Shown here one piece after another: positions 1 to 853 of a DNA stretch of 853 bases (positions are counted from its first letter, which is position 1; each line of letters begins with the position of its first letter). The DNA lies in NCBI RefSeq assembly GCF_003334335.1, contig NZ_QOWQ01000143.1; one strand, written 5' to 3'. The DNA comes from Escherichia coli (GTDB lineage: Bacteria > Pseudomonadota > Gammaproteobacteria > Enterobacterales > Enterobacteriaceae). The position numbers and the translations under genes are program-made. The notes beneath the pieces are model-generated. The model ran no database searches, was not told the origin of the DNA, and was given only the letters and a program-made list of their open reading frames with translations.

Positions 1-494
1 GTCACCCACATGCTGTACTGCACCTGGGCCATGTAAGCCGACTTTATGGCCTCGAAACCACCGAGCCGGAACTTCATGAAATCCCTGGAGGTAAACGGGC
101 ATTTCAGCTCAAGGCCATTGCCGTCACTGCATAAACCATCGGGAGAGCAGGCTGTGCGCATACTTTCGTCGCGATAGATGATCGGGGATTCAGTAACATT
201 CACGCCGGAAGTGAATTCAAACAGGGTTCTGGCGTCGTTCTCGTACTGTTTTCCCCAGGCCAGCGCCTTAGCATTAACTTCCGGAGCCACACCGGTGCAA
301 ACCTCAGCCAGCAGGGTGTGGAAGTAGGACATTTTCATGTCAGGCCACTTCTTTCCTGAGCGGGGCTTTGCTATCACGTTGTGAACTTCTGAAGCGGTGA
401 TGACGCCGAGCCGTAATTTGTGCCATGCATCATCCCCCTGTTCGACAGCTCTCACGTCGATCCCGGTACGCTGCAGGATAATGTCCGGTGTCAT
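1..494 (-). CDS. exo: Lambda exonuclease (Exo / Red-alpha), 5'->3' dsDNA exonuclease; N-terminal 164 codons, 3' end truncated by window edge (full protein is about 226 aa)
   Basis: Minus-strand translation from the ATG at 494-492 reads [164 protein letters not shown](T), with no stop through position 3. This matches the lambda Exo N-terminus as I recall it, including Arg28 and the PD-(D/E)XK catalytic residues Asp119, Glu129 and Lys131. It was absent from the ORF track only because there is no in-window stop codon. Confidence 0.96.
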
Positions 495-853
495 GCTGCC
501 ACCTTCTGCTCAGTGGCTTTCTGTTTCAGGAATCCAAGAGCTTTCACTGCTTCGGCCTGTGTCAGTTCTGACGATGCGCGAATGTCGCGGCGAAATATCT
601 GGGAACAGAGCGGCAATAAGTCGTCATCCCATGTTTTATCCAGGGCGATCAGCAGAGTGTTAATCTCCTGCATGGTTTCATCGTTAACCGGAGTGATGTC
701 GCGTTCTGGCTGACGTTCTGCAGTGTATGCAGTATTTTCGACAATGCGCTCGGCTTCATCCTTGTCATAGATACCAGCAAATCCGAAGGCCAGACGGGCA
801 CACTGAATCATGGCTTTATGCCGTAACATCCGTTTGGGATGCGACTGCCACGG
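491..853 (-). CDS. bet: Bet (Red-beta) single-strand annealing / recombination protein; C-terminal 120 codons plus TGA stop, 5' end lies beyond the window (full protein is about 261 aa)
   Basis: The minus-strand frame is open from 853 down to the TGA at 493-491 and reads [120 protein letters not shown]. This matches the C-terminal region of lambda Bet. The supplied ORF (491..829) starts at an internal Met (Met codon 829-827); the frame continues without a stop to the window edge, so the true start is upstream and outside the window. Confidence 0.96.
499..505 (-). promoter_or_regulatory. Probable Shine-Dalgarno sequence for exo (AAGGTGG on the minus strand), embedded in the last codons of bet
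   Basis: The minus-strand sequence reads ...GAGCAGAAGGTGGCAGCATGA. AAGGTGG lies 4 nt upstream of the exo ATG (494-492), with the AGG core 7 nt upstream. This is consistent with a ribosome-binding site placed inside the upstream gene for coupled translation. Confidence 0.55.

Follow-up and report, generated by a model that had tools for sequence, protein, structure and literature searches.

The stretch of DNA analysed here, 853 nucleotides in length and referred to below as the window, carries lambda-type Red recombination genes, and the question that it raises is whether it came from a free phage, a prophage or an engineered Red cassette. Our analyses make it highly probable that the window belongs to the Red module, part of the early-left (pL) operon, of a lambda-like temperate phage that occurs in nature and has Escherichia coli or a close relative as its host, and that it stems neither from lambda itself nor from a construct derived from lambda. 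The case for a natural phage origin is made by exact matches over all 853 bases in Escherichia phage PhiR5_1 and in an IMG/VR prophage contig, together with a divergence from lambda of the synonymous type. By base rates, the DNA was most likely sampled as a prophage integrated in an E. coli chromosome. The window alone cannot separate virion DNA from an integrated prophage of the same phage.

Translation and comparison with lambda showed that all 853 bases are coding, on the minus strand, and the following features were located.

1 to 494, minus strand: 5′ part of exo (lambda exonuclease, Red-alpha), residues 1-164 and two nucleotides of codon 165
491 to 494, minus strand: ATGA overlap of the bet stop TGA and the exo start ATG, read from the sequence
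491 to 853, minus strand: 3′ part of bet (Red-beta single-strand annealing protein), residues 142-261 and the TGA stop at 493-491
499 to 505, minus strand: Shine-Dalgarno-like AAGGTGG, 4 nt upstream of the exo ATG, within the end of bet
512 to 514, minus strand: Bet codon 255, ACT (Thr), which is GCA (Ala) in lambda; the sole amino-acid difference from lambda within the window

The sequence-only reading had described this DNA as internal gene sequence and nothing else. It is indeed coding throughout, but the bet-stop/exo-start junction at 491-494 and the Shine-Dalgarno-like site also lie inside it. Lambda has the identical 4-nt overlap between the two genes (exo 31348-32028 and bet 32025-32810 in NC_001416), and such an ATGA overlap is typical of translational coupling. 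The AAGGTGG motif is a putative ribosome-binding site, and in phage 434 records a ribosome_binding_site is annotated under the window match. The G+C content is even across the window, at 50-55%. Within the 853 bases we found no repeats, no promoter-like sites and, in a permissive scan, no Rfam family at E ≤ 1; the one terminator-like hairpin lies on the antisense strand and is at chance level. Two plus-strand open reading frames of 88 and 97 amino acids, at 397-663 and 420-713, run antisense to bet and exo; no supporting evidence was found for them as genes and they were treated as chance open reading frames. Vector, attachment-site and host sequence were also looked for within the window and none was found, in agreement with the sequence-only reading, which had seen no vector backbone, attachment site or host flank.

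The Exo fragment, residues 1-164, is identical in protein sequence to lambda Exo over the same residues. It is matched by the Pfam family YqaJ (PF09588; E 1.1e-28, residues 24-164 against positions 2-146 of the 150 in the model) and, in a sequence search of the PDB, by 1avq, 3slp and 6m9k_A with E values of about 1e-111. TIGR03033 gave 45.8 bits against a cutoff of 68 bits, a score that falls short because the window edge truncates the protein: Exo is cut at codon 165, and the full protein has 226 residues. The residues R28, L78, D109, E129 and K131 are all present in the window; from lambda Exo crystal structures we take D109, E129 and K131 to be catalytic and R28 to bind the 5′-phosphate. 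By these matches the fragment is classed as a member of the lambda exonuclease / YqaJ family, a PD-(D/E)XK nuclease.

The Bet fragment, residues 142-261, shares 119 of its 120 residues with lambda Bet, the one difference being A255T. Its start is matched by the C-terminal end of the Pfam RecT family with an E value of 1.2e-7, and a sequence search of the PDB returned 7ujl, 8tfu and 6m9k_D. In this case too an NCBIfam score (TIGR01913, 37.7 bits) was under its cutoff, because only the last 37 positions of that profile fall in the window. The fragment is accordingly assigned, from its sequence, to Bet (Red-beta), a RecT-family single-strand annealing protein, with the C-terminal Exo-binding domain included. 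That domain, which has been crystallised bound to Exo (PDB 6m9k), lies wholly inside the window, while the N-terminal DNA-annealing core comprises residues 1-177 and the window covers residues 142-261 only. The presence of lambda-type Red genes, as first read from the letters, is therefore borne out by the translations and by the Pfam and PDB matches.

Lambda Exo is a trimeric 5′-3′ double-strand DNA exonuclease. By analogy with the lambda system, Exo would resect one strand from a double-strand DNA end, and Bet would load on the exposed 3′ single strand and anneal it to complementary DNA, with the C-terminal domain of Bet expected to contact Exo as in the complex of PDB 6m9k. Gam, encoded downstream, would inhibit RecBCD. 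Translational coupling of bet and exo on the pL transcript would fit the ATGA overlap and the internal ribosome-binding site.

Genes, gene order, the 4-nt overlap and reading frames are the same in the window as in the lambda Red module. At the DNA level the identity is 97.7%, with 20 of the 853 bases mismatched to nt 31535-32387 of NC_001416. Eighteen of these differences are synonymous; the remaining two share a single codon and give Bet A255T. Sequencing error was considered as their source and rejected, since nearly all are at third codon positions and they are common to many independent records. The pattern has the character of natural divergence under purifying selection, and not of error or design. 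As for residue 255, which is within the C-terminal domain that binds Exo, the codon is Thr (ACT) in 50 of 57 fetched loci, Ala (GCA) in 5 and Ser (TCT) in 2, so that the Ala255 of lambda is in the minority, in a sample that is biased towards relatives of the window because its loci were picked by exact matches to it.

We then asked where this allele occurs. The best match had a megablast E value of 0 and 1,576 bits, far beyond chance. Among 50,697 phage records 198 match the window, but only one does so over 853 of 853 bases, that of Escherichia phage PhiR5_1 (PV340545.1, host E. coli C), and the next-best phage records have 99.2% identity. In PhiR5_1 the identical stretch is at 5549-6401 of the record (exo and bet at 5362-6824), with the same junction and with Thr at Bet position 255. 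A literature search on PhiR5_1 or the PhiR phage series found nothing relevant. In IMG/VR, 50 contigs contain the 200 nt of window positions 640-839 exactly; a single one of them, UViG_643348545_000013 (57.9 kb), matches over 853 of 853 bases, and two others are off by one base. Of the 5,426 complete E. coli genomes, 3,610 contain related sequence, in 5,206 places of which 5,191 are chromosomal and 15 lie on plasmids, but none of these 5,426 genomes has an exact 853-base match. The best of them is strain SCU-104, at 99.8% identity with two mismatches, in a prophage adjoining mlrA.

The IMG/VR, metagenome and GTDB searches used exact 200-base patterns, of which the most discriminating was window positions 31-230 with the rare 86T/153T allele. 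This pattern was found in four IMG/VR contigs and in one metagenome contig of 276 kb; the latter was rejected as the source on account of 10 mismatches elsewhere in the window. No GTDB species representative has the exact pattern, and consequently no representative of a species other than E. coli carries the allele. More distant Red copies, with 79% identity, are found in Enterobacter (PLSDB). The 86T/153T combination occurs in only 7 of 54 loci, whereas positions 640-839 are exact in 50 IMG/VR contigs, and the differences among relatives cluster in blocks at about 42-153, 193-309 and 357-578. A patchwork of this kind is to be expected where lambdoid Red alleles recombine with one another.

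The surroundings of the match were examined in the relatives. In all fetched loci (about 56, gap-free) the remainders of exo and bet, and gam as well, are collinear, within a neighbourhood orf60a-exo-bet-gam-kil of which only the bet/exo junction lies inside the window. As had been predicted, the rest of exo follows beyond position 1, as 187 nt collinear in every relative fetched. On the other side gam had been placed directly past position 853, and this needs correction: because the window starts at Bet codon 142, there are first 423 nt of bet (141 codons) and a 5-nt spacer, according to the lambda annotation and the collinear loci. Gam itself is annotated with 98 amino acids in PhiR5_1 (L001 6830-7126) and in RefSeq prophages versus 138 in lambda (L002 2317-2733); the two lengths reflect where the start site was annotated and no change of sequence.

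The left arm of PhiR5_1 is of the standard lambdoid type and reads, in order, int, xis, ea22-type genes, a TraR-like gene, orf61, a gene for a 250-amino-acid protein, orf60a, exo, bet, gam and kil, and past kil follow the immunity and replication regions, in which cI, cro, cII, O, P and ren are annotated. PhiR5_1, UViG_643348545_000013 and the SCU-104 prophage have in common a block of about 3.65 kb with more than 99.5% identity, from the end of ea22 through gam, and outside this block the identity among the three falls or vanishes. The chromosomal lambdoid prophages of SCU-104, VCSW7 and FDAARGOS_144 are 99.5-99.8% identical to the window, differing by 2-4 bases, and have the same orf60a-exo-bet-gam-kil neighbourhood. 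However, the SCU-104 prophage has a 428-amino-acid integrase and adjoins mlrA, whereas those of VCSW7 and FDAARGOS_144, with Red genes that are 99.5-99.6% identical, adjoin icd and have a 380-amino-acid integrase and immunity genes that differ from those of SCU-104. Near-identical Red alleles are therefore found at different attachment sites, and neither the integration site nor the other modules can be predicted from the allele. This lack of a link is not really surprising, as it is the expected mosaicism of lambdoid phages. For the same reason, the Red match to PhiR5_1 says nothing about the integrase, the cI or the genes annotated as HipA and HipD in the parent of the window.

Some genes near these Red modules may be mentioned in their own right. 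In PhiR5_1, a HipA toxin and a HipD antitoxin are annotated between kil and cI (L001 7915-9488), where lambda has N, rexAB and neighbours, and the pair may be a phage-borne toxin-antitoxin system or defence cargo. The SCU-104 prophage has a gene for an “Nmad5 family putative nucleotide modification protein” directly past cIII (L004 10153-10776). In FDAARGOS_144, a very large inverse autotransporter beta-domain gene (L061 15863-18853; record 479795-484060) lies about 250 nt after the replication gene P and occupies the expected position of the nin region; either the prophage is truncated there or the adhesin is carried as cargo.

Against this background the other possible origins can be weighed. 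An engineered recombineering cassette, on a plasmid of the pKD46, pSIM or pCAGO type or in a strain with a defective lambda prophage, would be a reasonable thought, given that such tools use these very genes and that pCAGO is found in PLSDB with a match of 97.7% to the window. This plasmid (KY563785.1), the only small engineered one among the PLSDB matches and the sole recombineering plasmid directly compared, nevertheless speaks against the idea: its Red insert is lambda nt 31088-33232, with 100% identity across 2,145 nt, and the 20 positions at which it departs from the window are precisely those of lambda. The other Red tools (pKD46, pSIM and the defective-prophage strains) presumably carry the lambda allele as well, and we take the laboratory cassettes to consist of lambda nt 31088-33241, as in pKD46. 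Judged by pCAGO, a laboratory cassette encodes the same proteins as the window and the two would be interchangeable in function, but its DNA is lambda base for base and that of the window is not. Moreover, the exact allele of the window is present in a natural phage and a prophage contig, and the differences, nearly all of them synonymous, lie in blocks common to many wild prophages, which fits neither error nor a designed recoding. We consider a cassette very unlikely for these reasons. Phage lambda itself, as a laboratory stock, a lysogen or spiked control DNA, is less credible still. Lambda is a common contaminant, and PLSDB contains several 48.5-kb “plasmids”, from unrelated bacteria, whose identity to the window is 97.7%, but 20 mismatches in 853 bases against NC_001416 are far above what sequencing error or variation among laboratory strains would give, and the pattern is synonymous. 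With 20 substitutions relative to lambda, while the pCAGO insert is 100% lambda, the window is neither lambda nor a cassette derived from it.

There is also the idea of a natural Red module in an unusual carrier, be it a plasmid or phage-plasmid, a host outside Escherichia/Shigella, or the decayed remnant of a cryptic prophage. Plasmid records account for 15 of the 5,206 E. coli places, PLSDB has matches at 98-99% on records called plasmids, and there are the more distant copies, at 79%, in Enterobacter. Many of these PLSDB records, however, are hundreds of kb to Mb in size and resemble mislabelled pieces of chromosome, and every match that was examined, the two exact ones and the close ones alike, belongs to a full lambdoid phage or prophage in which int, immunity and replication modules are present. 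A decayed remnant also fits poorly with two reading frames that are intact in the window and differ from lambda almost only synonymously. This origin is highly improbable in our judgement. The same slim chance is given to the wild Red allele in any unusual carrier when this is taken to include a construct deliberately built from the Red module of a lambdoid phage other than lambda, for which the window offers no support. The origin that we favour is still a natural phage of the lambda-like temperate type, with E. coli or a close relative as host.

The sequence-only reading had expected the flanks to discriminate between the possible origins. This stands for free phage versus prophage, but the cassette and lambda could be rejected from the window itself, from the 20 substitutions, the comparison with pCAGO and the exact natural matches. 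A flank of 2 kb on each side, the minimum that it proposed, would be too short in many cases and might show shared phage genes only: among the relatives, phage, prophage and in part plasmid have exo-bet-gam in common along with several kb of surrounding sequence, and on the exo side int and the host junction are reached only about 7-9 kb out.

Some of the deposited records found along the way are of interest by themselves. Three PLSDB entries of about 48.5 kb match the window at 97.7%, under the names of Stenotrophomonas maltophilia (NZ_CP104294.1, 48,499 bp), Paenibacillus sonchi (NZ_CP068597.1, 48,499 bp) and Salmonella enterica (NZ_CP082339.1, 48,502 bp). NZ_CP104294.1 (43527-47379), the only one of the three that was compared, is 100% lambda over 3,388 nt. 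All three look like lambda control DNA that was assembled and deposited as plasmids. Several other Red-bearing PLSDB “plasmids” have sizes of 0.3-4.9 Mb, for example NZ_CP134663.1 (4.9 Mb), and are probably chromosome pieces labelled as plasmids. Such records inflate plasmid counts for prophage genes.

The sequence of the window is ordinary and already known, its allele being already in GenBank. Because lambdoid genomes are mosaic, a Red fragment of this kind does not show from which prophage or attachment site it comes, or whether it was integrated. The biological weight of the finding is small, since lambdoid Exo and Bet are among the best-studied recombination proteins. Its use is one of method: the allele at synonymous sites is sufficient on its own, without any flanks, to separate a short Red fragment from contamination by laboratory lambda or recombineering DNA.
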